Assembly (NCBI GenBank): GCA_040755995.1
Contig: JBFMAF010000025.1
Coordinates: 1 to 41,553 of the forward strand
DNA: 41,553 nt
Direction of reading: 5' to 3'
Origin: Acidobacteriota bacterium
Lineage (GTDB): Bacteria; Acidobacteriota; CAIWXX01
Both the position numbers and the translations under genes were made by a program. The notes under the pieces were generated by a model that ran no database searches, was not told where the DNA came from, and was given only the letters and a program-made list of their open reading frames with translations. This document shows, piece after piece, positions 2,984-40,378 of the stretch (position 1 is its first letter; each line of letters starts with the position of its first letter).

Positions 2984-3640
2984 CTATCTCGCCCTCAGGC
3001 CGGCAAGCTTCACGGCACCGCGATGATAGCCGTCCGGAAAGAGTTTCTCCAACTCCTCGATTTCGATGTTGAACGCTTCGCACGTCTCGTAGACAGTGGG
3101 AACGATCTGGGCCTTGTGGAAGTTCTGCCGGAGAAACCGGATGAGCTCCCACTGCTTCTCCGTCAGCGGCTCGGCCATCTTCATCTCGTGTGCCTTGTAC
3201 TGCGCATACTGCTCGTCCCACTCGGTCGGATCGACCAGGAAGCCGCGGATGTCGACTCTGTAGGTCTTATCCGGAGCTTTCTCAGCCGGCCCCGGTTCGA
3301 TGGGCAGATACTGATAATGCTGCAGATAGCCTTCTTTGTAAGTGAGCCCCGCCAGCTTGCAGGCGCCTCGCAGATAGCCGCTCGGGAAGAGCGCCTTCAG
3401 GTCCCTCAGGCGAAGTCCGTTCGCCTTGCACGTCTGATAGACGAGCGGGCATTTCCCGAACTCATCCAGCGTGCGCCGGATGAAATGGATCACGTCCCAA
3501 TGCTTCTTCGTCAATCCCTGCGGGATGCCCATATCGGGCGCCGTCGCCACGGCGAAGTTCTCGTCCCACTCACGGTAGTCCTTCAGGAAGCCCGTCGCGT
3601 CGACATGGTATTCCTTCCCGTTTACCTTGACTGTACACAT
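2984..3640 (-). CDS. tandem two-domain TusE/DsrC/DsvC-family sulfur relay protein
   Basis: Two copies of D..GFL....W.....A...LT..(H/Q)W..I.F.R...LFP.G...GA.KLAGL; ATG 3640 after AGGAGGAG RBS. Confidence 0.85.
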   Translation of the reverse strand: MCTVKVNGKEYHVDATGFLKDYREWDENFAVATAPDMGIPQGLTKKHWDVIHFIRRTLDEFGKCPLVYQTCKANGLRLRDLKALFPSGYLRGACKLAGLTYKEGYLQHYQYLPIEPGPAEKAPDKTYRVDIRGFLVDPTEWDEQYAQYKAHEMKMAEPLTEKQWELIRFLRQNFHKAQIVPTVYETCEAFNIEIEELEKLFPDGYHRGAVKLAGLRAR

Positions 3641-3723
3641 GACTCCTCCTCTTATAGAAACGGTTCGATGACTGCATGATGTGTGGGGTCCGGCGGCCGG
3701 CTCGCCGAACCGCTCCCGGCGTA

Positions 3724-4716
3724 TCACTTCGACTCCCATGCCCGAGCCTGACTGATGCGGCTGCGCGGAGGCACGCTGTGCGTCAGCCAGACGTTTCCGC
3801 CGATGACCGATCCTGAGCCGATGGTCACGCGCCCGAGGATCGTGGCACCCGCGTAGATGACCACATCGTCACCGATGATCGGATGTCGCGGAATTCCCTT
3901 GGTCAGATTGCCCTGCGCGTCGCGCGGAAAGCTCTTCGCGCCCAGCGTCACCCCCTGGTAGATCCGCACGCGGTCTCCTATCTCGCAAGTCTCGCCGATG
4001 ACCACTCCGGTCCCGTGGTCGATGAAGAATTTCTCGCCGATTCTCGCCCCAGGGTGGACGTCTATGCCGGTGCGCGCATGCGCAGACTCGGAGATCATCC
4101 GCGGGAGCAGGGGAACCTCGAGCTGGTGGAGCTCGTGAGCGATCCGGTGATTGGTGATCGCCAGGACCCCCGGATAGCAGAACACCGTCTCCTCCGCGCA
4201 GCTTGCCGCCGGATCGCCTTCGAATGCGGCAATGACGTCGGTGGCGAGCAGGTGGCGCACGCGAGGCAGTCGCTGGAGGAAACGATGCGTGGTCTCCAGG
4301 GTATGGTCATGGCACCCAACGCAGTACGCCGGATCGAGCGTGCAGTGAAAGCAGAACGCACGCTGGATCTGCTCTCGCAGCGACCGTTGCGCACGATCCA
4401 GAACCGCGCCTACGTGGAAATGCATGGTCTCGTCGTTGAGATCCGAGACCCCCGAGTACCCCGGGAACAGCACCGATCGAAGATCGTCGAGTATCCGAGC
4501 GACCTCCTCTCGCGAAGGCAATGCCTGCCTGCCTCCATGGTTGGCATTCCAGGATGCAATCCCTTCCGAAGCTGCGCATAGCGCCTCCACGATCGGAGTG
4601 ATCTCGAACTCGCGCACTGAAGTGTCTGGGCGTCTGCCGTCCAATGACACTCCTATTAGTCGACTGATCGGAGCTTCTACCCCTAATCGTTGTGGGTCAT
4701 TGTCCAGTAATGTCAT
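3724..4716 (-). CDS. cysE: serine O-acetyltransferase (EpsC/CysE type)
   Basis: GDPAA..EE...CYPG, HRIAHEL, TGIDVHPGARIG..FFIDHGTGVVIGET, IYQGVTLGA, RHP.IGD.V.IYAGATILG; alternative TTG start at 4644 with AGGAG RBS. Confidence 0.93.
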   Translation of the reverse strand: MTLLDNDPQRLGVEAPISRLIGVSLDGRRPDTSVREFEITPIVEALCAASEGIASWNANHGGRQALPSREEVARILDDLRSVLFPGYSGVSDLNDETMHFHVGAVLDRAQRSLREQIQRAFCFHCTLDPAYCVGCHDHTLETTHRFLQRLPRVRHLLATDVIAAFEGDPAASCAEETVFCYPGVLAITNHRIAHELHQLEVPLLPRMISESAHARTGIDVHPGARIGEKFFIDHGTGVVIGETCEIGDRVRIYQGVTLGAKSFPRDAQGNLTKGIPRHPIIGDDVVIYAGATILGRVTIGSGSVIGGNVWLTHSVPPRSRISQARAWESK

Positions 4717-14115: not shown

Positions 14116-14574
14116 CTACACCTGCTGCTGCATCAGCTGCTTGATTCCGGAGACCGCCTCGGAGACGACCTTCGTGGTGATATCGATCTGGAGCGTGAGG
14201 TTGTGCATCTCGGCCTGCATTCCGAGAATCTCCTGTGACGAGAACGAACGCCCGCTCTGCAGCTCCTTGACGATGTCGTTGAGACGGCCGTAGCCTTGCT
14301 CGAGCTCGCCGCCGAGCTTCTTGAGGCCCTCCGGAGTCTGAGCCATCTTCACCTTCTCGTCGATCATGTTCCGAGCGTTGACCTGGTCCCCAATCCCCTG
14401 TCTCTTGATCTCCGGTACCTGGACCTCGATATTGATCGGCTGGCCGGACCCCTTCGTCTGTTCCAGCTGGTCCATGACCTGCTGGAACTGCTTCATGTTT
14501 TCCGGGGCCTCGTCGGCGACCCTTCTGGCCTGCTCCAGAATCGGACCTATCGATTCCATGCCGCCTAGTGTCAT
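14116..14574 (-). CDS. putative T3SS inner-rod protein (SctI/YscI/HrpB2-like)
   Basis: C-terminal helix FSSQEILGMQAEMHNLTLQIDITTKVVSEAVSGIKQLMQQQV matches the inner-rod pattern (ELL.MQ......DL..K......VK.L...Q); AGGGAG RBS; T3SS-like neighbours. Confidence 0.65.
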   Translation of the reverse strand: MTLGGMESIGPILEQARRVADEAPENMKQFQQVMDQLEQTKGSGQPINIEVQVPEIKRQGIGDQVNARNMIDEKVKMAQTPEGLKKLGGELEQGYGRLNDIVKELQSGRSFSSQEILGMQAEMHNLTLQIDITTKVVSEAVSGIKQLMQQQV

Positions 14575-14659: not shown

Positions 14660-15058
14660 TCAGGCTCGCTGGAAGAGCCCGGATCGCAGCCCAGAGAGCA
14701 ACTCCTTGGCGAACGCGACGGCCGATGGGTCGCGATTGCCCTGAACGACAGAGTTCAAGGCTGTCTCGGCCTCGGACCACCGCTTCTGCGCGATGAGCGC
14801 TTCGGCCAGGTAGGCGCGCGTCAGGTCGTGGTCCTCGTGCTGCTGGAGCACCTGCCGGTAGCCGCGCTCCGCGTCTCCGTACTGGCCCTGCGCAAAATGC
14901 CACATGCCGAGGAACAACCCCGGGGTCGGATCATTGGGCCGGAGCGCCTGAGCGGCGTCCAGGAACGATCGCGCTTCCTTCAAGAACCCCGTCCTCATGC
15001 TCATGTACCCAAGTTCCAGGATTATCTGCGGCAGCTTTTCCTGCGATTCCATCGTCAT
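14660..15058 (-). CDS. TPR protein, putative needle chaperone (YscG/CdsG/HrpB1-like)
   Basis: ~130 aa, three TPR-like units (LELGY...G...EAR...LRPNDP..GL.LG...F..G.Y.DAE); immediately downstream of the needle-like gene. Confidence 0.65.
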   Translation of the reverse strand: MTMESQEKLPQIILELGYMSMRTGFLKEARSFLDAAQALRPNDPTPGLFLGMWHFAQGQYGDAERGYRQVLQQHEDHDLTRAYLAEALIAQKRWSEAETALNSVVQGNRDPSAVAFAKELLSGLRSGLFQRA

Positions 15059-15205: not shown

Positions 15206-15460
15206 CTATTTGAAGTTCCGGATGGCGGTAGTGGCGGAGTCGTAGCGCGCCTTCATAACGGTGGACAACGCCTGGTAGGCCTGCTGTTCCTTCAGCATCG
15301 CCTTCTGGAGATCCAGGTAGTACTTCATGTCGTTGGACCCGGTGGCGTCTGGGTCCTGCATCTTGCTCTGGAAATCCGCGGCGTTGACGTTGGACTGGTC
15401 GATGGCGTCGGTGCCAAGATTGGTGGCCCCTCGAGAATAGTTGACTTGAAACGAGCTCAT
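15206..15460 (-). CDS. putative T3SS needle subunit (SctF/YscF/HrpA-like)
   Basis: 84 aa; C-terminal helix LDLQKAMLKEQQAYQALSTVMKARYDSATTAIRNFK fits the needle pattern (LQ...Y...S...K...D....I.NF(R/K)); GGAGGT RBS. Confidence 0.65.
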   Translation of the reverse strand: MSSFQVNYSRGATNLGTDAIDQSNVNAADFQSKMQDPDATGSNDMKYYLDLQKAMLKEQQAYQALSTVMKARYDSATTAIRNFK

Positions 15461-15732
15461 GGTTTACCTCCAAATGTCTTCTGTATGACGGGCAACATCT
15501 GGGCGGCCAAGAGCAGCGCCTTCTGGACGGCAGCCGAGGATTCTCGGCGGCCCATGGTTGCCAGCTCGTCTACCTTGTTGCGAAATTCATTGGACGGCAG
15601 GTGGACCAGCTCTGAGAGCGTCGGGAAGGCCATCGGATCCAACTGGCCTTTCGAGGAAGGTCCGTCCTGGTTTCTTTGGGGAACGGCGGCAGACGCGATG
15701 TCACCCACACGGAAGCCGGATTGCTCGGTCAT
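15457..15732 (-). CDS. small protein, candidate YscE/CdsE-like needle co-chaperone
   Basis: 91 aa, helical C-terminus (AAVQKALLLAAQML); ATGA overlap with the needle-like gene; AGGAGGT RBS; function inferred from position. Confidence 0.5.
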   Translation of the reverse strand: MTEQSGFRVGDIASAAVPQRNQDGPSSKGQLDPMAFPTLSELVHLPSNEFRNKVDELATMGRRESSAAVQKALLLAAQMLPVIQKTFGGKP

Positions 15733-15883: not shown

Positions 15884-16435
15884 CTATGCGGGTGGTGCCG
15901 CCTGGGCCTTCTTGGCCTCCGAGATGATCTCCTGGAGCACTCCGGGCCCCTTCTCCTGCACCTCCTTGGCGATGGTCGATACAAGCAAGGCCGACGTGCG
16001 CGCGCGGTTCGCGTACGGATCCTTGCCCTCGGGATCGAGCGCCACCGCCTTCTGGAAGTAGTCGATCGCGGGCTCGATCCAGCCCTTCTCCAGGCAGATC
16101 TCGCCGGCGAACGTATGCGCCGCGACGTCCTGTGGGTTGTATCCCAATGCGACCTGGAACGAGGAGAGCGCTGCGTCATTCAGGTTCTTCTGCATGTACA
16201 CGCAGCCGAGCCCCGTGTGCAGAAACGGGTTCTGCGGATCCAGCGCCACCAGTCCCTCCATCAACGTCTGTGCATCGTCTAGCTGGCCCTGCTCGGCGAG
16301 CTGCCGCGCCACGATTGACAGAGCCAGTATGTCCTCGAGAGAGATTCCGATAGCCTCGGCGAGCGTGTCATGGCCCGCCATGAGCTGCTTCATCCGCGCT
16401 TTAAGTTCTTCGAAGTCTTTGTTGTTATTTCCCAT
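15884..16435 (-). CDS. SycD/LcrH/CesD-like TPR type III secretion chaperone
   Basis: G..TLAEAIGIS.EDI..L...A......G..DDA.....GLVALDP....H.GLG.......; three TPRs, ~180 aa. Confidence 0.75.
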   Translation of the reverse strand: MGNNNKDFEELKARMKQLMAGHDTLAEAIGISLEDILALSIVARQLAEQGQLDDAQTLMEGLVALDPQNPFLHTGLGCVYMQKNLNDAALSSFQVALGYNPQDVAAHTFAGEICLEKGWIEPAIDYFQKAVALDPEGKDPYANRARTSALLVSTIAKEVQEKGPGVLQEIISEAKKAQAAPPA

Positions 16436-16463: not shown

Positions 16464-17375
16464 CTATCGGAAGTTCCGGATGGCGCCCATCATCATGTCG
16501 TGCATGCTCTTGCGCATCTCGTTGATCGCCTGGATCATCTGCTGGATCTTCTGCATCTTCTGCTGCAACTGCTGCATCTTCTTCTGGCCTTCTGGCTTGC
16601 TGGTGTCGATGCTCTCCATCTCCTTTTCGATGCTGGCCATCTCATCGAAGCACTTGTTCATCGCCCCTTCACCGAACCCGGCACCGCTGACGCCACTGCC
16701 GCCGCTGGCTCCGCCCGATCCGCCTGCCTGGCCTGCTCCGCCCGCGCCGCCCGCGCCGCCCGCGCCGCCGGCACCCTGCGCCCCTCCGGCCTGTCCGGCC
16801 CCACCGACGCCCAGGATGTTCTTGAGCTGGTCGAGCAGCGAGCCGAGCGTAGGCGGCTGCTGCGGCTGGCCCAGACCCTGCAGAAGCTTGCCGAGCTGGT
16901 CAAGCGTACCCTGGACCTGGTTGAGTGAGTTGCCCAGGTTCTGCAGCAGCTGGCTGTTGGGCTGCATGATGTTTTGCAGAGTGTTCTGCATGTTGTTCAT
17001 CATGTCCATCATCTTGTGCATGTCCTGGTGCATGTGCGCCGGCCCGAAGCAACCCGGGCGCATCGGCTGCCCGCCCATGCCCGGGAACTGCGGGAACATG
17101 CCGCGGCCGGCCAGCTGGCCGATGCCCTGCATCATCTGGTCCATGCCCTTGTGGAACATCTTGTCGCCGAGGCCCTTCATCATGCCGCCATGCTGCATCA
17201 GTTCATGGCCCTTCGTCATCTGGGCCGCACCACCGGCGATCTTCTCGAACGCGTCGCCAATGCCGGGCAACTTCGGGAACATCCCGCCGCCCATGCCCTG
17301 CATCATGCCCTGGGCGAGATTCTGGATCATGGGCATGATCATTTGCGCTGCCATGCCCGCTAGTGCTGGTAACAT
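16464..17375 (-). CDS. Gly/Met/Gln-rich low-complexity protein with needle-like C-terminus (candidate T3SS filament/harpin-like substrate)
   Basis: GAGGAGG RBS; no Trp or Tyr; (GGA)n linker; ends KMQQLQQKMQKIQQMIQAINEMRKSMHDMMMGAIRNFR. Confidence 0.7.
   Translation of the reverse strand: MLPALAGMAAQMIMPMIQNLAQGMMQGMGGGMFPKLPGIGDAFEKIAGGAAQMTKGHELMQHGGMMKGLGDKMFHKGMDQMMQGIGQLAGRGMFPQFPGMGGQPMRPGCFGPAHMHQDMHKMMDMMNNMQNTLQNIMQPNSQLLQNLGNSLNQVQGTLDQLGKLLQGLGQPQQPPTLGSLLDQLKNILGVGGAGQAGGAQGAGGAGGAGGAGGAGQAGGSGGASGGSGVSGAGFGEGAMNKCFDEMASIEKEMESIDTSKPEGQKKMQQLQQKMQKIQQMIQAINEMRKSMHDMMMGAIRNFR
16741..16767. repeat. 9-bp coding tandem repeat (cccgcgccg x3) in Gly-Gly-Ala linker
   Basis: Exact triple repeat inside the GGAGGAGGAGGA peptide stretch. 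Confidence 0.7.
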
Positions 17376-17566
17376 CCCTTTCCTCCTCGTTGAGTTTTAT
17401 AGGTTTGTGTTTCTATCCGTTGACGAACCTGGGTCCACAATTGCCATGCCGGCGCACGGGCGGAGGCTTCCCAGACTCCACCTGCTGCTGGCTGGCTCGA
17501 CTGCTGAACCGTTGACATTGGGGCAAATGGTACCCCGCTCTCCTGCTAATTTGGAAACGAACTTTT

Positions 17567-17575
17567 ATTATACCA
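17567..17575 (-). promoter_or_regulatory. putative extended -10 sigma-70 promoter for the Gly/Met-rich gene
   Basis: TGGTATAAT on the minus strand in an AT-rich intergenic region, ~190 nt before the ATG. Confidence 0.5.
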
Positions 17576-17703
17576 GGAAACTCTACCCATCGCCAGTGAT
17601 TTGTTTTCCGGGCAAGCCGTCCTGGGCCGTGACGCGTGCCGTTCCAATTCGCTGTGCTCAATGCCCCATGGCTCCACGACTCACCATCTCTCATTCCACA
17701 CGC

Positions 17704-17732
17704 TATTATCGGACGCGCATCGAAATTGTTGT
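17704..17732 (-). promoter_or_regulatory. putative sigma-28-type promoter
   Basis: ACAA-N15-TCCGATAA (canonical TAAA-N15-GCCGATAA); related motif at 18826-18838. Confidence 0.45.
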
Positions 17733-18454
17733 CACCGAAGTACGGTTGCACTGGGCGGCGGATTCATCGCACGCTGGACAAGCAGTCGCAACGATCTGAT
17801 CGCTTTCTGGTGTATCCGGCTGGCCCAGGAGCGGGACACGCCGAGCTGTTCAGCCGCTTCAGCAATGTTCAATCCTTCGAAGTAGACCTTGCGCACAAGC
17901 TGCGCCTCCTGTTCGGTGAGCTGGCGCATTGCTTTGGAGATGTAGTCGCTCCATTCGGCCGTCTGGGCGAGCGCCTCGCCCTCCGGCGGGCGATACTCGT
18001 CGCCGCCGAAGGCGGCCATGGCATGGCTCAACATGAAGAGCACCGTGCTGTCGTGCAGAGACTCCTCGATCGTGCTGCACATCTGCTCCACCTCCACCAC
18101 CGGCGCGTCGCCGTCGCACGTGCGCGTGGCGAGGAGCTCATGGAACCCGCGCGCGAACCTGATCTTCTCGCTCATTCTCCGGGACAGTCCCCGCATCTTG
18201 CAAAGGCCGTCCAGGATCGCACCGCGAATCCTGTAGTAGGCGAACGTGGAGAACTGGCACTGGCTCTCCGGTCTGAAGCGGTCGACCGCTTCGATCAGGC
18301 CGATCTGCCCGTATCCTACAAGATCCTCCAGCGCCACTGCCTTTCCGAGAGTCTGCCAGACGGACGCAGCGATGTGACGCACGAGCCCCTGATGCTGCAC
18401 TATCCGATCGTCTCGCGACAGCGCCGCCAGCTGCGGTTGAGTGCTCATGGACAC
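17732..18454 (-). CDS. FliA/WhiG (sigma-28)-family RNA polymerase sigma factor
   Basis: Region 2 EDLVGYGQIGLIEAVDRF.P...FSTFAYYRIRGAILDGL; region 4 LTEQEAQLVRKVYFEGLNIAEAAEQLGVSRSWASRIHQKAI. Confidence 0.9.
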   Translation of the reverse strand: MSMSTQPQLAALSRDDRIVQHQGLVRHIAASVWQTLGKAVALEDLVGYGQIGLIEAVDRFRPESQCQFSTFAYYRIRGAILDGLCKMRGLSRRMSEKIRFARGFHELLATRTCDGDAPVVEVEQMCSTIEESLHDSTVLFMLSHAMAAFGGDEYRPPEGEALAQTAEWSDYISKAMRQLTEQEAQLVRKVYFEGLNIAEAAEQLGVSRSWASRIHQKAIRSLRLLVQRAMNPPPSATVLR

Positions 18455-18463
18455 GCTGATCCG

Positions 18464-18808
18464 CTACGGCATTCTCTCTCTGACCAGTTTCTGCAACAGG
18501 GCCTGGAAGGTCGGGTCATCCCTCAGCGCTTCGGTCAGGTGCTCGTGGAGCTGCGACCGGAGCGTCTCACCCCACGTGCGCGTCGGCACGTTCCGCTGGA
18601 TCCACGAGTCGATCACCTTCTGCGAAATCGCGTTGACATCCCAGGCGCGACCGCCCGCGGGAGCGAGGCTCGTCTTGACTATGCTCAGGAACTCTTTCGC
18701 GGACGCGGGCATTTCACTGTCTATCCTGCTGGTTTGACCCGGTGTTTGTGAAGACGAATCGATTGGCATTGGATTGATGTTCTTCGGACCTTCTGCGATG
18801 CGTGTCAT
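18464..18808 (-). CDS. hypothetical protein directly upstream of the sigma factor
   Basis: 114 aa; polar N-terminus, helical C-terminus (LTEALRDDPTFQALLQKL); 9-nt gap to the sigma gene. Confidence 0.65.
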   Translation of the reverse strand: MTRIAEGPKNINPMPIDSSSQTPGQTSRIDSEMPASAKEFLSIVKTSLAPAGGRAWDVNAISQKVIDSWIQRNVPTRTWGETLRSQLHEHLTEALRDDPTFQALLQKLVRERMP

Positions 18809-33150: not shown

Positions 33151-33532
33151 ATGGGTTTCGGACCTGGAGACTACGAATACACAAATCACGCGGTGGGGTG
33201 GGGTCCCGATCGGCGGTCGGGCCTCACCCTCCCGCCTTCCTCGCTTCGCTCTGCACTTCGCCTCACGTGCGCGACTCCTGGCCTCTGAAGATGCTGGAAA
33301 ACCAACAGGCTGTGCTTGTTTTGCAGTCTGCGGACGGCGGATTCCTGCGTGCTTCGAGTGCGCGTCGTGCGATATGGAGCGGCACGATCTGGCACCTAAG
33401 GTCGACGGGACGTTCCATGCCCGAATCCAGGGCGGGCGAATAAGAGAGACGCCGGGCCCGAGGCGAAGCTCCACTAGGACTTCGACCTATCTTACTATCG
33501 GGCCCATTCGCTGATTGCGGGGACGTGTGCTC

Positions 33533-33552
33533 TGCATATAATAGAGTATGCG
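33533..33552. promoter_or_regulatory. candidate enhancer-binding-protein site (inverted repeat)
   Basis: TGCATA-N8-TATGCG with an AT-rich core, ~75-95 bp upstream of the -24 element. Confidence 0.4.
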
Positions 33553-33625
33553 ATCTCGCGCAAGCGGCGTGGTTACGAGACAGGAACAGGTGCGAGCGAC
33601 GCATACGCAGCCCGGAGCGGCGGCC

Positions 33626-33641
33626 CGGCACGATTCTTGCA
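33626..33641 (+). promoter_or_regulatory. sigma-54 (-24/-12) promoter of the metal efflux operon
   Basis: CGGCACG-ATTC-TTGCA, GG-N10-GC spacing exact, 160 nt before the TolC ATG. Confidence 0.7.
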
Positions 33642-33800
33642 GAGTTCCACCGGGAGGTCGACGTGAGAGAAGGCGAGTCTTCGGCTGCGACACGGTCCAT
33701 CCTGGCTTTCCGGTCTAGTCGGATCTCGACCAGCCGCCAGGCGGACATGAGGTTTCTCGATAGTGTCAGCGCCATCCGTAATTGCAGGGGGATCTGTGTG

Positions 33801-35093
33801 ATGGGCAAGTGGACGACCATGAGTATGCTTTCGGGGCTCACTCTCGTGAGTGCAATGCCGGTTCCAGCGGGTCTGCCGGCCGAGGAGCCGGTTGCGCTTG
33901 CGGCGGTGGTAGAGGAGGCGGTGCAGCGGAACCCGGAGCTTCAAGCTTCGAAGGCCATGTACGAGGCATCGACATTCCGGCCGTCTCAGGAGGGCGCACT
34001 CCCGGACCCAACCATAGGCATCATGTCAACCAGCATGACCAACCCGATCCCGCTCTATTATGCGGATCCGATCGCCAATGTCGCCATACGGGCATCGCAG
34101 GAGATCCCGTACCCTGGGAAACGGCGGCTGGCCAGCGAGGCGGCAAAGCTGGAATCCGAGGCCCTGGAGCAGTCCTATCAGGCGCGGCGTTTGGCCGTTA
34201 TCGCCTGGGCGAAGGAGGCCTACTTCGCGATCGCTTACTATGACCGGGCGCTGCGGCTCCTCGGCGAGAACCTGGTGTTGCTCGATGAGCTCTCACGCGC
34301 CGCCCAGACGCGGTACGCCGTCGGCACTTCTTCCCAGCAGGACGTCCTGAGAGCCCAGACTGAAATCTCGGTATTGACGGCTCGAAAGGTCGCGATCGAG
34401 CAGCAACGACAGGCGGCCGTGGCCAGGCTGAACGGGCTGCTTAACCGACCCGCAGGCACGCCCTTCGGAACGCCGGTTGACTACCCGATACCCGCTCTTC
34501 CTCCTCTGGCGGCCGATTTGCGCGAAGGAGCGAGAGCGAGGTCGCCTGAGCTCAGGGCTCGGCAACTGGACCTGGATGCTGCGGCTGCGAAGCTCGAGCT
34601 GGCGAAAAAACAGCTCATGCCGGACTTCATGCTCGGCGCATCATACGGTTACTCCCGCGAGTATCGCGACATGTGGCAGCTCAACTTAGACCTGAAGGTG
34701 CCGCTCTATCGCCGTGAGAAGCAGAAGATGGGCATACAGGAAGAGACACGCAACGTGGAAGTCGCGCGCCGGGAGCTCGACGGCGCGCTCCAGACGGTCA
34801 CCGCCGGCATCGAGGAACAGTACGCAATGGCCGCAGCCGCATGGCGCCTCATCACGCTTTACGACTCAGGGATCATTCCTCAGGCCCGCCTCACACTCGA
34901 AGCTTCTCTTTCCAGCTACAAGGTCGGCGAGGTCGACTTCCTCACGGTTGTGACGAACTTCATCTCGGTCCTGGAGTATCGAATGAACTACTATGAGCAG
35001 GTGTCCGACTACCAGAAGGCTTTGAGTCAGATCGAGCAACTCGCCGCGACCGAGCTGCTTTCGACCCAGGCTACCACGGAGAACAAGTCATGA
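33801..35093 (+). CDS. TolC-family outer-membrane efflux protein (CusC/CzcC-like)
   Basis: NPEL, LPDP, SQEIPYPGKR, AYF, RYAVG...QQDVLRAQ, YKVGEVDFL; ATG 33801 after GGGGGA. Confidence 0.9.
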   Translation: MGKWTTMSMLSGLTLVSAMPVPAGLPAEEPVALAAVVEEAVQRNPELQASKAMYEASTFRPSQEGALPDPTIGIMSTSMTNPIPLYYADPIANVAIRASQEIPYPGKRRLASEAAKLESEALEQSYQARRLAVIAWAKEAYFAIAYYDRALRLLGENLVLLDELSRAAQTRYAVGTSSQQDVLRAQTEISVLTARKVAIEQQRQAAVARLNGLLNRPAGTPFGTPVDYPIPALPPLAADLREGARARSPELRARQLDLDAAAAKLELAKKQLMPDFMLGASYGYSREYRDMWQLNLDLKVPLYRREKQKMGIQEETRNVEVARRELDGALQTVTAGIEEQYAMAAAAWRLITLYDSGIIPQARLTLEASLSSYKVGEVDFLTVVTNFISVLEYRMNYYEQVSDYQKALSQIEQLAATELLSTQATTENKS

Positions 35094-36619
35094 GATCATC
35101 CATTGGAAAGACGGGCGCAGTGCTTGCGGCCGGGCTGTTGATTGCGGCGCTGGTTATCGCGGGGTGCGCGAAGGGGGCAAAGGAAGTGACCAAGTACCAT
35201 TGCCCCATGCACCCCACGTACATATCCGACAAGCCCGGCGACTGCCCCATCTGCGGTATGCGACTTGTGCCGCTCGGGACGAAGGAGGCCCCGGCAACCG
35301 TTGCCGCCTACACCTGTCCATTGCACCCGGAGGTGACTTCGGATCAGCCCGGCACTTGCTCGAAGTGCGGCACGAAGTTGGTCCCGACAGAGCAGGTCGA
35401 GGGTTCCGGTGGAAAGGTGCCGGAGTCCAAAGGTGCTCGAAAAGTCCTCTACTACCGGAGTCCGATGGATCCCAGCGTCACATCGCCCGTTCCCGCCAAG
35501 GACTCAATGGGTATGGATTTCATCCCGGTGTACGAGGAGCAAGCTGCATCCGCCGCGGGTGCCGTCCCGGGGATGGCCGATGTCTCGATGACCGCGGAAG
35601 GCCTGCGGCTCTCGGGAGTGCTCACGGCACCGGCTGTGCGCGATCGGCTTGCGCTCAACGTGCGGACAGTCGGAATCATCACCCCGAACGAGACGCTGAT
35701 CCGGCACGTTCACACGAAAATCAGCGGATGGATCGAGAAGCTATTCGTGAACTTCACAGGTCAGATGGTCCGGAGGGGCGAACCGGTGCTGACCATCTAC
35801 TCCCCGGATCTCGTAGCCACGCAGGAGGAGTTCTTGCGCGCACTCCAGGCGGCCGATCTCTTCAGCAAGTCCGACCTGCCGGAGATCCGCAAAGGCGGCC
35901 AGGAACTGCTGGAGGGGGCTCGACGCCGCCTCGAGCTCTACGACGTCCCGGAGGATGTCATCGAAACGCTGCAACGTACGAAGGCGCCGCAGCGAACCGT
36001 CACCCTGCTCAGCAACGCCTCGGGCTACGTCACTGCGAAGGAGGTCTTCGAGGGGAAGCAGGTGGAGCCCGGGATGGAGCTGTTCACGATCACCGACCTG
36101 TCGCGAATATGGGTCGAGGCCGACCTCTATGAGTACGAGGCGCGGGCCGTAAAGGTCGGACAGATGGGAACACTCACGCTGCCCTTCGATCCTTCGCTGA
36201 CCCTCAAGGGCCGCGTTGTCTACATACTGCCCTATCTCAGCCCCGAGAGCCGGACTCTGAAGGTCCGACTCGAATTTCCGAACCTCGAGCTCAAGCTGAG
36301 GCCGGCGATGTATGCAAACGTGGAGCTGCAGGTCGATGCAGGGGTGGGAATCGTCGTTCCCGACTCGGCCGTCATGGACACCGGCGAGCGGCAGATGATC
36401 TTCGTGCAGAAAGAGGGCAACGTGTTCGAGCCGCGTGAGGTGAAAGTTGGGATACGGAGCGAGGGCAAGGCGATGGTTCTGTCGGGACTGAGTGAGGGCG
36501 AACGCGTGGCGATTCGCGCCAACTTCCTCCTCGACTCCGAGAGCCGCCTGCGGGCCGCGATCGCAGGGATGACCAGCGCGCCGCCGGCCGCGCACTCCGG
36601 ACACGGTGGCGAGAAGTAA
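35090..36619 (+). CDS. cusB: CusB-type RND periplasmic adaptor with N-terminal heavy-metal-binding domains
   Basis: YHCPMHP...PGDCPICGM, YTCPLHP...CSKCG, YRSPMDP...KDSMGM; YSPDLVATQEE; FLLDSESRL. Confidence 0.88.
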   Translation: MRSSIGKTGAVLAAGLLIAALVIAGCAKGAKEVTKYHCPMHPTYISDKPGDCPICGMRLVPLGTKEAPATVAAYTCPLHPEVTSDQPGTCSKCGTKLVPTEQVEGSGGKVPESKGARKVLYYRSPMDPSVTSPVPAKDSMGMDFIPVYEEQAASAAGAVPGMADVSMTAEGLRLSGVLTAPAVRDRLALNVRTVGIITPNETLIRHVHTKISGWIEKLFVNFTGQMVRRGEPVLTIYSPDLVATQEEFLRALQAADLFSKSDLPEIRKGGQELLEGARRRLELYDVPEDVIETLQRTKAPQRTVTLLSNASGYVTAKEVFEGKQVEPGMELFTITDLSRIWVEADLYEYEARAVKVGQMGTLTLPFDPSLTLKGRVVYILPYLSPESRTLKVRLEFPNLELKLRPAMYANVELQVDAGVGIVVPDSAVMDTGERQMIFVQKEGNVFEPREVKVGIRSEGKAMVLSGLSEGERVAIRANFLLDSESRLRAAIAGMTSAPPAAHSGHGGEK

Positions 36620-39600
36620 TGATCCAGCACATCATCGAGTTCTCCGCGAAGAACCGCATCTTTGTCCTGATGGTCGTGGCCGCACTCTGCGTGCTGGCCG
36701 GCTACATCCTCCAGGAGATCCGCCTGGACGCGCTCCCCGACCTCTCCGACACCCAGGTCATCATCTACTCGAAGTGGGACCGATCGCCCGACATCATCGA
36801 AGACCAGGTCACGTATCCGATCGTCACGGCTCTGCTTGGGGCCCCCCGCGTCAAGGCCATCAGAGCTTCGACCGATTTCGGCTTCTCCTACGTGTACGTC
36901 ATCTTCCAGGACGGCACCGACATCTACTGGGCGCGATCGCGCGTGCTCGAGTATCTTTCCAAGATCCAAACCCGGCTGCCGGAGGGGGTCCAGACCGAGC
37001 TCGGCCCGGATGCCACCGGGGTCGGATGGGTCTTCCAGTACGCGCTCCTGGATAGCTCGGGGACGCATACTCCGGACCAGCTCCGCAGCTACCAGGACTG
37101 GACGCTCCGGTACGCCATTCAGTCCGTCACCGGCGTGTCCGAGGTGGCCTCGATCGGAGGCTTCGTCAAGCAGTACCAGGTGACGGTCGATCCGAACCGG
37201 CTCGCAACTTACCAGCTCCCGTTGTCCGAGGTGATCGCGGCTATCCGGATGTCGAACAATGAAGTGGGTGGCAGGCTGCTGGAGTGGAGCGGTCGCGAGT
37301 ACATGGTGCGCGGCCGCGGATACTCCAGGTCGCTCTCCGATTTCAAACAGATCGTCGTGAAGGTCGGCCCCGGCGGCGTGCCGGTGCTCCTGCGGGACGT
37401 GGCCCAGGTCGATCTCGGTCCCGAGATCCGGCGGGGCATATCGGACCTGGACGGGCTCGGAGACACGGTCGGCGGGATCGTCGTGATGCGCCACGGCGAG
37501 AATGCGTTGAATGTAATCCGCCGGGTCAAGGACAAGCTCCGCGAGATCAAGCCGTACCTGCCCAAGGGTGTGGAAGTCGTGACCACCTACGATCGGGCGA
37601 ATCTCATTGAGCGCGCAATCGAGACGCTCAAGCACGAGCTGACGATCGAGATGATCATCGTCTCGCTGGTGATCCTCATTTTCCTATGGCACGTTCCTTC
37701 GGCTATCGTTCCGATAGTAACCATCCCGGTGTCCGTCCTGCTCTCCTTCATCCCGATGTATTACCTGGGTGTGACGGTCAACATCATGTCGCTGGCCGGA
37801 ATCGCCATCTCCATCGGCGTGCTCGTGGATGGGGCGATCGTGGAGGTGGAGAATGCATACAACAAGCTCCACTTGTGGGAAGCCGGCGGGCGAAAGGGGG
37901 ACTTCCACGCCGTCCGGCTGGAGGCTCTGAAGGAAGTCGGCCCGTCGGTCTTCTTCTCTCTTCTCGTTATCGCGGTGGCGTTCATCCCGGTCTTCGCGCT
38001 CGTGGACCAGGAGGGACGCCTCTTCAAACCGCTGGCTTACTCCAAGAACCTCGCCATGGCAATCGCCGCCATCCTGGCCATCACGCTCGATCCCGCCATG
38101 CGAATGCTGTTCACGCGGATGGATCCGATCAGCTTCCGGCCGAGATTCCTTTCCTGGTTGTCGACGAAGGTGGCCGTGGGAACTTACTATGCCGAGGAGA
38201 AACACCCGATCAGCCGCGCGATCTTCCGCGTATACGAGCCGGCATGCCGGTTCGTCCTCCGCCACCCAAAAACCATCATAGGAATTGCAATCCTCATGGT
38301 GGCCGGCAGCATCCCCTTCTACTTCAAGCTCGGAACCGAATTCATGCCGCCGCTCAACGAAGGCAGCATGCTCTACATGCCCACTACCCTGCCGGGCATC
38401 TCGGTTACACAGGCTCAGGAACTGATGCAGACGCAGGATCGAGTACTGAGGTCGTTCCCGGAGGTCGAGAGGGTTTTCGGAAAGGCCGGGCGCGCCGACA
38501 CATCCACCGATCCGGCTCCGTTCAGCATGATGGAAACCACCGTGATACTGAAGCCGCAGGACCAGTGGCGCAAGAAAGACCGATGGTACTCCCAACAGTC
38601 CCCCGAGTGGTTGAAGCCGCTCCTTCGACCGATCTGGCCCGAGTACATCTCGTGGGAAGAGCTCGTCAACGAGCTTGACGCGGCGCTTCGCATCCCCGGC
38701 GTCACCAACGCCTGGACCATGCCCATCAAGGCCCGCATCGACATGCTCACAACCGGCGTGCGCACCCCAATCGGTATCAAGATCTTCGGCCAGGACCTGA
38801 AGGAGATCGAGAAGATCGGCGAGCAACTGGAGACGGTCGTCAGGCGCATTCCGGGCACGCGGAGCGTCTACGCGGAGCGCGTCACGGGCGGGTACTTCGC
38901 CGACTTCCTGCCTCGACGCGATCAGCTCGCGCGGTACGGCCTCACGGTCGAGCAGCTCCAGGACGTCATCATGAGCGCGATAGGCGGGCAGAATATTACT
39001 ACAACTGTAGAAGGACGCGAGCGATACCCGGTCAACCTCCGCTACCCCCGCGAGCTGCGCGACGACATCGGGCGCCTACAGCGCGTGCTCGTCCCGACTC
39101 CCTCCGGCGCCCAGATACCGCTCATCCAGCTCGCGGACATCCAGCTCGTGCAGGGGCCGGCGATGATTCGCGACGAGAACGGGTTCCTCGCGGGCTACGT
39201 CTACGTCGACATCACGGGTCGCGATATCGGGAGCTACGTCGAGGAAGCCAAGAGGATCGTGCGGGAGGAGCTTGCGGTTCCCCCGGGGTATGTTCTACAG
39301 TGGAGCGGCCAGTACGAGAACATGCTGCGGGTTCGGGAACGCTTGAAGGTAGTGGTTCCCATCACACTGGGCCTCATCTTCCTACTTCTCTTCGCCAACA
39401 CTCGATCGACCTTCAAGGCGATGGTGGTCATGCTGGCGGTGCCGTTCTCCGCGATCGGGGCCATCTGGCTATTCTATTTCCTGGACTACAACGTCTCGAT
39501 CGCAGCCTGGGTGGGGATGATCGCCCTGCTCGGTCTCGATGCCGAGACCGGTGTCTTCATGTTGCTGTTCCTGGATCTCTCACACGATGATGCCAAGAGG

Positions 39601-39897
39601 CGGGGGGCTTTGAGATCCCCCGCCGATCTGGACGAGGCGATCGTCCACGGCGCAGTCAAGCGCGCGCGGCCGAAGATGATGACGGTGTGCGCGGCGTTCA
39701 TGGGCCTCGTCCCGATCATGTGGTCCACATCGGCCGGGGCCGACGTAATGAAACGAATCGCCGCGCCCATGATCGGCGGCCTCGTCACATCGTTCCTGCT
39801 GGAGCTGCTCGTCTACCCGGCAATTTACAAACTGTGGAAGCTGAGGGAGATTCCGAAGGAGGCGGTGGTGGCGCCGGCCCTGCCGACACAGCTGTGA
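36619..39897 (+). CDS. cusA: CusA/CzcA heavy-metal RND transporter (Cu/Ag type)
   Basis: LDALPDLSDTQVI, LGPDATGVGWV, FMPPLNEG..LYMP, TDPAPFSMMET, RPKMMT, APMIGG. Confidence 0.93.
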   Translation: MIQHIIEFSAKNRIFVLMVVAALCVLAGYILQEIRLDALPDLSDTQVIIYSKWDRSPDIIEDQVTYPIVTALLGAPRVKAIRASTDFGFSYVYVIFQDGTDIYWARSRVLEYLSKIQTRLPEGVQTELGPDATGVGWVFQYALLDSSGTHTPDQLRSYQDWTLRYAIQSVTGVSEVASIGGFVKQYQVTVDPNRLATYQLPLSEVIAAIRMSNNEVGGRLLEWSGREYMVRGRGYSRSLSDFKQIVVKVGPGGVPVLLRDVAQVDLGPEIRRGISDLDGLGDTVGGIVVMRHGENALNVIRRVKDKLREIKPYLPKGVEVVTTYDRANLIERAIETLKHELTIEMIIVSLVILIFLWHVPSAIVPIVTIPVSVLLSFIPMYYLGVTVNIMSLAGIAISIGVLVDGAIVEVENAYNKLHLWEAGGRKGDFHAVRLEALKEVGPSVFFSLLVIAVAFIPVFALVDQEGRLFKPLAYSKNLAMAIAAILAITLDPAMRMLFTRMDPISFRPRFLSWLSTKVAVGTYYAEEKHPISRAIFRVYEPACRFVLRHPKTIIGIAILMVAGSIPFYFKLGTEFMPPLNEGSMLYMPTTLPGISVTQAQELMQTQDRVLRSFPEVERVFGKAGRADTSTDPAPFSMMETTVILKPQDQWRKKDRWYSQQSPEWLKPLLRPIWPEYISWEELVNELDAALRIPGVTNAWTMPIKARIDMLTTGVRTPIGIKIFGQDLKEIEKIGEQLETVVRRIPGTRSVYAERVTGGYFADFLPRRDQLARYGLTVEQLQDVIMSAIGGQNITTTVEGRERYPVNLRYPRELRDDIGRLQRVLVPTPSGAQIPLIQLADIQLVQGPAMIRDENGFLAGYVYVDITGRDIGSYVEEAKRIVREELAVPPGYVLQWSGQYENMLRVRERLKVVVPITLGLIFLLLFANTRSTFKAMVVMLAVPFSAIGAIWLFYFLDYNVSIAAWVGMIALLGLDAETGVFMLLFLDLSHDDAKRRGALRSPADLDEAIVHGAVKRARPKMMTVCAAFMGLVPIMWSTSAGADVMKRIAAPMIGGLVTSFLLELLVYPAIYKLWKLREIPKEAVVAPALPTQL

Positions 39898-39955
39898 CAT
39901 GCACAGAACTGCGGAGATTGCCCGGGGGCGCAATCGACGCTGAGGAGAACACATA

Positions 39956-40378
39956 ATGAGGAGCACCCTGATTTGCGCCGCCGCCCTGCTGGTCGCGATA
40001 TCGAGCTTTGGACTGACGGAGGAGAAGCGCCAGACCAAGTGCCCGGTCATGGGAGGCGACGTCGACCCCGCCACGAGCATTCGAATGGACTACCAGGGGC
40101 AGCGAATCTATTTCTGCTGCGCCGGCTGTCCGTCGAAGTTCAAGGCCGATCCGGAAAAGTACTTCGCCAAGCTGGCCGCCGAAGGAATCGCGCTGGAGAA
40201 CATACAGGCGGCCTGCCCGGTGACGGGAGATGCGCTAAAGAAGAGGGACGCATTCACCGACTACAAAGGGCGCCGCGTGTACTTCTGCTGCAAGGACTGC
40301 GTTTCCGCTTTCGAGAAGAATCCTCCGAAGTACCTGCAGCAGCTGAACCCGATCTCAGATAAGTCGAAGGCTTCGTAG
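39956..40378 (+). CDS. exported protein with two YHS/TRASH-like domains
   Basis: CPVMG...YQGQRIYFCCAGCPSKF..DPEKY and CPVTG...YKGRRVYFCCKDC...F..NP.KY. Confidence 0.88.
   Translation: MRSTLICAAALLVAISSFGLTEEKRQTKCPVMGGDVDPATSIRMDYQGQRIYFCCAGCPSKFKADPEKYFAKLAAEGIALENIQAACPVTGDALKKRDAFTDYKGRRVYFCCKDCVSAFEKNPPKYLQQLNPISDKSKAS

Follow-up and report, generated by a model that had tools for sequence, protein, structure and literature searches.

Proteins of the SctF family (PrgI, MxiH, EsaG, YscF; PF09392 and TIGR02105) are the needle subunits of type III secretion systems (T3SS) and are about 80–90 residues long, with a short N-terminal segment. The solved structures of PrgI and MxiH needles have the N-terminus on the outside, where small tags are tolerated, and additions at the C-terminus block assembly (PMC3605151). 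In the filament proteins EspA and Bsp22 (SctA) one helix from each terminus forms the coiled coil, with a central insert lying between the two (PMC12607632).

A 2012 phylogenomic study describes the earliest-branching non-flagellar type III systems as having lost the needle gene (PMC3459982), and the myxobacterial systems are published as being without one (PMC3459982, PMC10433427, PMC12075869, PMC12428579). Several LcrH homologues in the myxobacterial cluster are noted in a published account. Up to 2025 it was given as an open question how substrates are moved by the needle-less T3SS* of Myxococcus, which is needed for prey lysis (PMC10433427, PMC12075869, PMC12428579). A figure legend in PMC3459982 mentions sub-threshold profile matches, and the supplements of the myxobacterial papers may list weak needle matches. 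The literature searched, which covered few subscription papers, yielded no description of an intact needle hairpin joined to a long variable N-terminal tail.

p303 is an open reading frame of 303 aa (positions 16464–17375, minus strand) in a 41,553-nt stretch of acidobacterial DNA, referred to as the window, which is contig C25 of a 7.7-Mb genome (G000). It is a needle paralogue that has a long tail and a chaperone gene of its own, and belongs to an unannotated SctF-like family found in supposedly needle-less systems. Residues 1–187 (16815–17375, minus strand) form a Met/Gly/Gln-rich N-terminal extension of short amphipathic helices with no transmembrane-strength segment; this region can be aligned only with close homologues. 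A flexible Gly/Ala linker follows at about residues 191–231 (16683–16805, minus strand; pLDDT <50), and then a C-terminal needle-type helix-loop-helix at residues 236–303 (16467–16670, minus strand), delimited by AlphaFold2 and profiles, whose end reads KSMHDMMMGAIRNFR.

The first-pass annotation of this DNA had pointed to the amphipathic helices, the linker and the absence of Trp and Tyr, and these features are confirmed. The internal repeat that it described is also real, with copy 1 at residues 24–40 (17256–17306, minus strand) and copy 2 at residues 81–101 (17073–17135, minus strand) and a score of 67, whereas 200 shuffled versions of residues 1–135 score 54 at most; it stems, however, from an insertion absent in close homologues. 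The ribosome binding site, said to be the strongest-looking, ties at −11.8 kcal/mol with that of a 91-aa gene downstream (−11.6 kcal/mol). A further suggestion, that the protein is harpin-like, does not hold. As in harpins (HrpZ, HrpN, Hpa1), the composition is Gly-rich (G 19.8%, M 12.9%, Q 12.2%) without Trp or Tyr, and the gene is T3SS-linked. Harpins are described as Cys-free (PMC12854069) and acidic (PMC3571957), whereas p303 has two Cys, a computed pI of 8.87 and a needle domain at its end, and harpin families gave no match in Pfam and NCBIfam scans of p303.

The AlphaFold2 model of p303 shows confident helices at residues 236–255 and 261–302 (block pLDDT 79–92 over 241–300); the N-terminal part is of low confidence and the mean pLDDT is 61. 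A second, shorter open reading frame in the same operon, p84 (84 aa, 15206–15460, minus strand), ends with KARYDSATTAIRNFK, and its last 72 residues form a hairpin in the predicted structure. The two C-terminal ends read as had been claimed. A comparison of the p303 and p84 family profiles, which had been proposed as a check, gives an hhalign probability of 95.4 and an E-value of 1.9e-8 over 57 columns; the score is 48.8, versus 14.0 for the reversed profile and ≤19.0 in 40 block shuffles. By these profile comparisons the shared C-terminus of p303 and p84 is true homology.

The relationship extends to the needle proteins themselves. When 63 C-termini are combined into a broad profile, its 11 best matches in the PDB are needle proteins. 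The top 11 are likewise all needles (PrgI, MxiH, EsaG; E-values 9.6e-7 to 9.2e-4) with a profile of 33 long-class C-termini, which contained zero short-class sequences, and the alignments to PrgI and MxiH cover the whole hairpin, not the last helix alone. A short-class profile of 17 rows and a six-row p84 profile each returned zero needle matches from the PDB; thus the class of p303 is the more needle-like in sequence. Of 12 Aeromonas T3SS proteins, the needle protein AscF alone scores (14–17 bits), and the rest remain below 4 bits. Judged on these alignments, the C-terminal hairpin of p303 is homologous to SctF, and the original idea of a needle paralogue with a large low-complexity addition stands.

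In family scans PF09392 has a single match in the whole genome, p303 itself (E = 0.077, 16.3 bits versus a cut-off of 29.4), and p303 shows no match to TIGR02105. Among 69 scanned proteins, four match PF09392 with E-values of 1.8e-6 to 1.1e-4, the best (28.5) also being under the cut-off. A p303-family profile that holds no p84-type sequence finds exactly three places in the genome: p303, p84 and a paralogue on contig C44 (L002:10321–11040), which is a full-length, stand-alone open reading frame of 230 aa that lacks both the Gly linker and a chaperone gene. A word-indexed search with full p303 gave one spurious N-terminal match and nothing more, and an unindexed search was needed; this gave 64 library proteins, of which 59 (52–647 aa) end in a needle-type domain. 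In these matches the tail is variable and the domain constantly C-terminal.

p303 shares with SctF a ~65-residue C-terminal helix-loop-helix ending I-x-N-F-R, a TPR chaperone gene next door and a location in a non-flagellar T3SS cluster. It differs in having 230 additional N-terminal residues, in its scores below the family cut-offs and in its turn, which reads DTSKPEG with no P-x-x-P (P-x-x-P is present in 24 of the 64 library matches). The operon also has a second, short SctF-like gene, and the chaperone neighbour is nearer to SycD/LcrH than to SctG. In its likely mode of action p303 is closest to SctF. Because its size, its scores and its loop all fall outside the SctF pattern, p303 is filed as an SctF-like variant, not a canonical SctF member. 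The P-(S/D)-(D/N)-P loop is lacking in EscF as well (PMC3605151).

Single-sequence Pfam matches of p303 are generic coiled coils, and fold searches do not single out needles: Foldseek gives nothing at E = 0.001, and VIA-align returns generic hairpins with MxiH at rank 21 (Z 7.8, rmsd 1.9, 67 aligned), tied with many unrelated hairpins. These results would suit a chance coiled-coil likeness or a decayed gene, in which a Gln/Met-rich end does no more than imitate a needle and the protein is cytoplasmic or functionless. This explanation is already largely refuted by the failure of the reversed and block-shuffled controls, the uniform needle matches in the PDB, full-length open orthologues in kept synteny, a tight link to SctV and a conserved promoter, and is regarded as highly improbable. 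An ESM Atlas feature search returned Myxococcota hypothetical clusters (0.90–0.91) and PF09392 clusters (0.89), which serve as leads only.

The operon is read on the minus strand. It starts with a 114-aa open reading frame (18464–18808) that has no family match, although an open reading frame of similar size occupies this place in the related genome G001, and continues with a FliA/WhiG-like sigma factor (17732–18454; TIGR02479, E = 9.7e-33, below cut-off), p303, and a SycD/LcrH-like TPR protein of 183 aa, the likely chaperone of p303 (15884–16435; TIGR02552, E = 1.7e-11, below cut-off). The 91-aa gene (15457–15732) is conserved in kin and occupies the position of the SctE cochaperone (YscE/CdsE), although its product has no sequence match to AscE. 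After p84 come a CdsG/HrpB1-like TPR protein, the likely needle chaperone of p84 (14660–15058; NF052304, E = 6.1e-7; PF09613 over cut-off), and the inner rod protein SctI (14116–14574; TIGR02497 over cut-off). Given this E-F-G-I synteny, the match of p84 to the long class and a score of 13 bits for AscF, p84 is likely the basic needle subunit. The one named close homologue of p84 points to Acidobacteriota as the phylum.

Contig C10 holds open reading frames that read as the remainder of a non-flagellar system, SctJ to SctV, named by sequence features and order. The sole FHIPEP gene of the genome is on this contig and passes the TIGR01399 cut-off. The T3SS cluster is split between SctI (C25, window position 14116) and SctJ (C10, L004:11186). 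Both same-family genomes have the two parts contiguous, in identical gene order and with open, full-length orthologues; as the split falls inside both contigs, it is a rearrangement and not an assembly break.

In a 13-row SctV tree (Chlamydia left out) the export gate of G000 lies outside the Ysc/Rhc/Hrp2/Inv clade (support 94/98), with no resolved placement among the other acidobacterial and myxobacterial gates. An SctC secretin over cut-off was found in none of five genomes tested. G000 has seven secretin genes of ~780–860 aa open frame (on C16, C22, C24, C29, C51, C52 and C55), none of them on C10 or C25 or near T3SS genes. The position of the gate and the lack of SctC over cut-off resemble the Myxococcales T3SS*, as does the presence of a FliA-like sigma factor, SctI, several LcrH-like genes and an FHA gene in the cluster. 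The difference is that SctF-like genes are found here in both the long and the short loci of systems published as needle-less.

On balance, p303 is probably an exported needle-type subunit that polymerises through its C-terminal hairpin and serves as a second filament subunit with its tail outside. The outward N-terminus and the free C-terminus essential for assembly in solved needles fit a protein with a variable front tail and a fixed end. In such a scheme the 183-aa TPR protein would keep the hairpin of p303 monomeric before export, as SctG-type TPR proteins hold SctF; p303 would then be exported by the early-branching type III system and add onto, or mix with, a short needle made of p84. 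By analogy with the variable domains of flagellin, the tail may act as a surface coat or adhesin.

Several points count against the filament reading. The N-terminal additions tried on real needles, and tolerated, measured 3–8 residues only (PMC3605151), so that a 230-residue tail on each subunit may not pack. The missing P-x-x-P turn, the score below the PF09392 cut-off, the many copies with neither type of chaperone gene (60 of 112; see below) and the occurrence of some copies in genomes where SctV was not found also weigh against it. A dedicated secretin did not turn up, so that a filament might remain in the periplasm or make use of some other secretin. Translocators are the usual clients of SycD-type chaperones (PMC13466201), which is a further point against; the same paper finds the large needle chaperone structurally very like class II chaperones, and an LcrH-like neighbour does not for that reason force a translocator reading.

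The SctF-like copies fall into two classes. Among 112 distinct copies in fetched loci, 33 precede an LcrH-type TPR gene (median 274 aa, range 160–498 for the 32 with upstream room) and 17 precede a CdsG-type TPR gene (median 128 aa, based on first-start calls). Sixty copies, the C44 paralogue among them, have neither chaperone type downstream, and two are at contig ends. Since 14 and 7 of these neighbours served as seeds for the two chaperone profiles, the classification is partly circular. Independently of it, the downstream neighbours of 15 long copies all match TIGR02552, with E-values no worse than 7.5e-13 but below the cut-off in every case; the genes next to four other copies (163–561 aa) gave no match in the same family scan. 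Two residues beyond the conserved Lys, an Arg is present in 17 of 17 CdsG-linked copies versus 2 of 33 LcrH-linked copies. A chaperone gene following the long copies is an observation that goes beyond the first-pass annotation, and so is the spread of the family into "needle-less" systems.

In a weak tree p84 falls among short-class copies from myxobacteria and from other families of Acidobacteriota, and apart from p303. This tree, built on 50-residue C-termini, has poor resolution: the class labels do cluster on it (4 changes versus 15.4 when shuffled), and single-clade status is shown for neither class. Since p84 groups with copies from other lineages and away from p303, the duplication that separates the two is old, and p303 as a recent duplicate of its neighbour is rejected in favour of separate old classes.

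A 16-mer shared by the two genes had been put forward as a link between them (16470–16485 in p303 and 15212–15227 in p84, both given on the plus strand). It is present in both, and these are its only two occurrences in the whole genome, but it adds no weight. The 16-mer consists of the five AIRNF codons and one base, identical codons given AIRNF have P of about 0.035, and in neither same-family genome do the two orthologues have such a run in common. Thus the 16-mer is rejected as a mark of recent duplication or gene conversion.

The chaperone next to p303 raises the question of a translocator. A profile of such SycD/LcrH-like neighbours scores AcrH at 54.7 bits and AscY at 23.7 bits, and TIGR02552 is the best match in 11 of the 15 long-copy neighbours. 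A few copies of p303 could dock on the end of a p84 needle through the hairpin, as a tip or primitive translocator, with the amphipathic Gly-rich N-terminal helices contacting or inserting into the target membrane in place of the missing tip and translocon. The role is vacant, in that the SseC, IpaC, EspA and YopD families gave no match in G000 (searches made without a positive control genome). The helices of p303 are strongly amphipathic, its size is similar to that of the SctB/SctE translocators (AopB/AopD with AcrH, YopB/YopD with SycD), and the long-class profile gives weak IpaD matches (E 1.2–2.6) over the last helix. In three loci (L047, L072, L090) two or three long copies surround one chaperone gene, as translocator pairs do.

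Yet the maximum hydropathy of p303 (19-residue window) is 1.11 versus 2.24 and 2.25 for AopB and AopD, a result that also speaks against the classical pore-former suggested earlier. Of 33 long copies, no more than 5 attain 1.6, and one reaches 2.0. AopB and AopD carry the P/VxLxxP anchor; p303 does not, and among the long copies it occurs in 2 of 33 (3.7 expected). AopB, AopD and AcrV score nothing with the class profile, and the tails are unrelated between lineages. A tip or translocator role is rated as unlikely, second to the filament reading.

Like EspA and Bsp22, p303 is proposed to build a second, longer filament whose surface portion varies, and there are several divergent copies per genome, as for bsp22 (bioRxiv 10.1101/2025.09.16.676505). 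However, p303 keeps an intact hairpin (residues 236–302) at its end, with the extra domain in front, in a model whose N-terminal part is of low confidence. Both hairpin helices are C-terminal and there is no pairing of N- and C-termini, so the EspA/Bsp22 arrangement ascribed to it at first is not seen. The comparison by sequence covered EspA, whose family PF03433 has no match at E = 1 in G000 and none in Pfam scans.

SctX, together with SctY, docks on SctV. By this model, the needle-like C-terminus of p303 would be a handle for chaperone binding or gate docking and the N-terminal part a payload or spacer, p303 being an exported cargo or export-gate regulator that forms no filament. In one family of the phylum (L044, L048, L051) a long gene and a TPR gene are directly upstream of sctV, the place of ascX-ascY in Aeromonas, and long-copy neighbours match the SctY model too. 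Stand-alone copies are found off-cluster (that on C44, and L155). In addition, a 439-aa library protein (P0058) carries in front of its needle-like C-terminus a DUF1521 domain, the metal-induced autocleavage domain of NopE. On the other side, AscX scores ≤3.6 bits with three profiles, and p303 is not SctX; the whole hairpin, rather than its last helix, aligns to PrgI and MxiH; and adjacency to sctV is not kept in the family of the window or in myxobacterial loci. We hold the cargo or regulator explanation to be improbable.

A predicted sigma-28-type promoter, ACAA-N15-TCCGATAA, is found at 17706–17732 on the minus strand, about 325–330 nt upstream of p303. The sigma-28 consensus is TAAA-N15-GCCGATAA. 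A matrix search puts the predicted promoter first among 1843 candidate sites in G000. The 18 training sites of the matrix came from other genomes and included that of the G001 orthologue; the site preceding the C44 paralogue is joint sixth to eighth. A −10 motif of the CGATAA type precedes 11 of 30 LcrH-linked copies (2.5 expected) and also 9 of 17 CdsG-linked ones (1.2 expected), in most cases paired with an upstream CAAC/AAAC element at sigma-28 spacing. This agrees with the initial proposal that p303 heads a FliA-driven unit, and the FliA-like sigma factor of the cluster may transcribe p303 from the predicted promoter.

The gap between the predicted promoter and p303 is ~325 nt (window 17376–17705), versus ~130 in G001, and no conserved open reading frame was seen there; it is possibly a regulatory leader. 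The second-ranked sigma-28-like site (C10:194925, minus strand) is upstream of a Ser/Thr protein kinase-like open reading frame, which may belong to this regulon too. Contig C27 (L005:10257–11562) encodes a further FliA-like sigma factor together with a small FlgM-like open reading frame, beside chemotaxis-like genes, in a genome whose sole FHIPEP gene is the non-flagellar gate.

A link to T3SS genes elsewhere, on which the first-pass annotation had made its proposal depend, is seen in the same-family loci, in myxobacteria and across the phylum. Among 401 genomes of the phylum, in which kin are not independent, the SctF-like family is present in 21 of 22 with SctV over cut-off versus 11 of 379 others. 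Four of these 11 are fragmented assemblies, and the remaining seven include copies behind signal-peptide-like starts. A needle-like C-terminal helix is found at L030:4–1689, L032:919–1686 and L035:1495–1986, in genomes without SctV over cut-off, and two of these open reading frames start in a signal-peptide-like manner. The domain possibly has a T3SS-independent use in such genomes.

A contig scan shows that named Myxococcota, Bradymonadales and other records share the pattern of a long gene and a chaperone gene; named members in Bradymonas sediminis, Lujinxingia litoralis and Anaeromyxobacter are annotated as hypothetical. In the myxobacterial family of G401 (Archangium sp.) 141 of 151 genomes, a tally that includes the unpublished genome G454, have 1–12 copies. 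In all 15 genomes of this family that were checked, each of the two T3SS export-gate genes lies no more than 30 kb from a copy; of the 87 copies, 64 are this close to an export-gate gene. This count leaves out G490, where one gate and its nearest copy are on different contigs, and the third FHIPEP gene of G410. For Myxococcus xanthus the presence of SctF-like genes is presumed from its family only.

The myxobacterial long locus begins with an SctF-like gene, a TPR gene, a FliA-like sigma factor gene and SctI, sometimes with tandem copies of 72–74 aa near sctV. The long copy of 498–540 aa is located elsewhere, and in G453 it is followed by an LcrH-like gene. In G523 (L157:6726–7820) a tandem array of 3–5 near-identical short SctF-like genes (~72–95 aa) is found in the long locus, a few kb from sctV, and similar arrays are present in G486, G497, G499, G505, G514 and G548. 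Such arrays are the gene amplification expected of a high-demand filament subunit. Another myxobacterial long locus (L153:5740–6912) has a 390-aa open reading frame followed by an LcrH-like gene; it displays no NCBIfam match and no needle-like end, and is a candidate for another chaperone client.

The SctF-like family provides specific, deletable candidate genes within clusters of the "needle-less" type, and candidate clients for their unexplained LcrH-like chaperones. A broader proposal is advanced tentatively and with some doubt: the "needle-less" T3SS of myxobacteria and Acidobacteriota may in fact have a needle, and may assemble a flagellum-like filament in two tiers, controlled by a sigma-28 regulon. 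First would come a short SctF-type subunit served by SctE/G-type chaperones, followed by long SctF-type subunits, each with its own LcrH-type chaperone and with interchangeable N-terminal tails on the surface. If true, the two-tier filament would give the orphan LcrH chaperones their clients, provide predatory myxobacteria with a conduit for their prey-lysis system, and represent a living stage between flagellin and needle.

Two other features of the window may be mentioned. Positions 2984–3739 encode a protein that combines a LexA-type DNA-binding domain with two DsrC-like stretches, and positions 33525–40378 display an ordinary CusCBA-like heavy-metal efflux operon followed by a YHS-domain protein.
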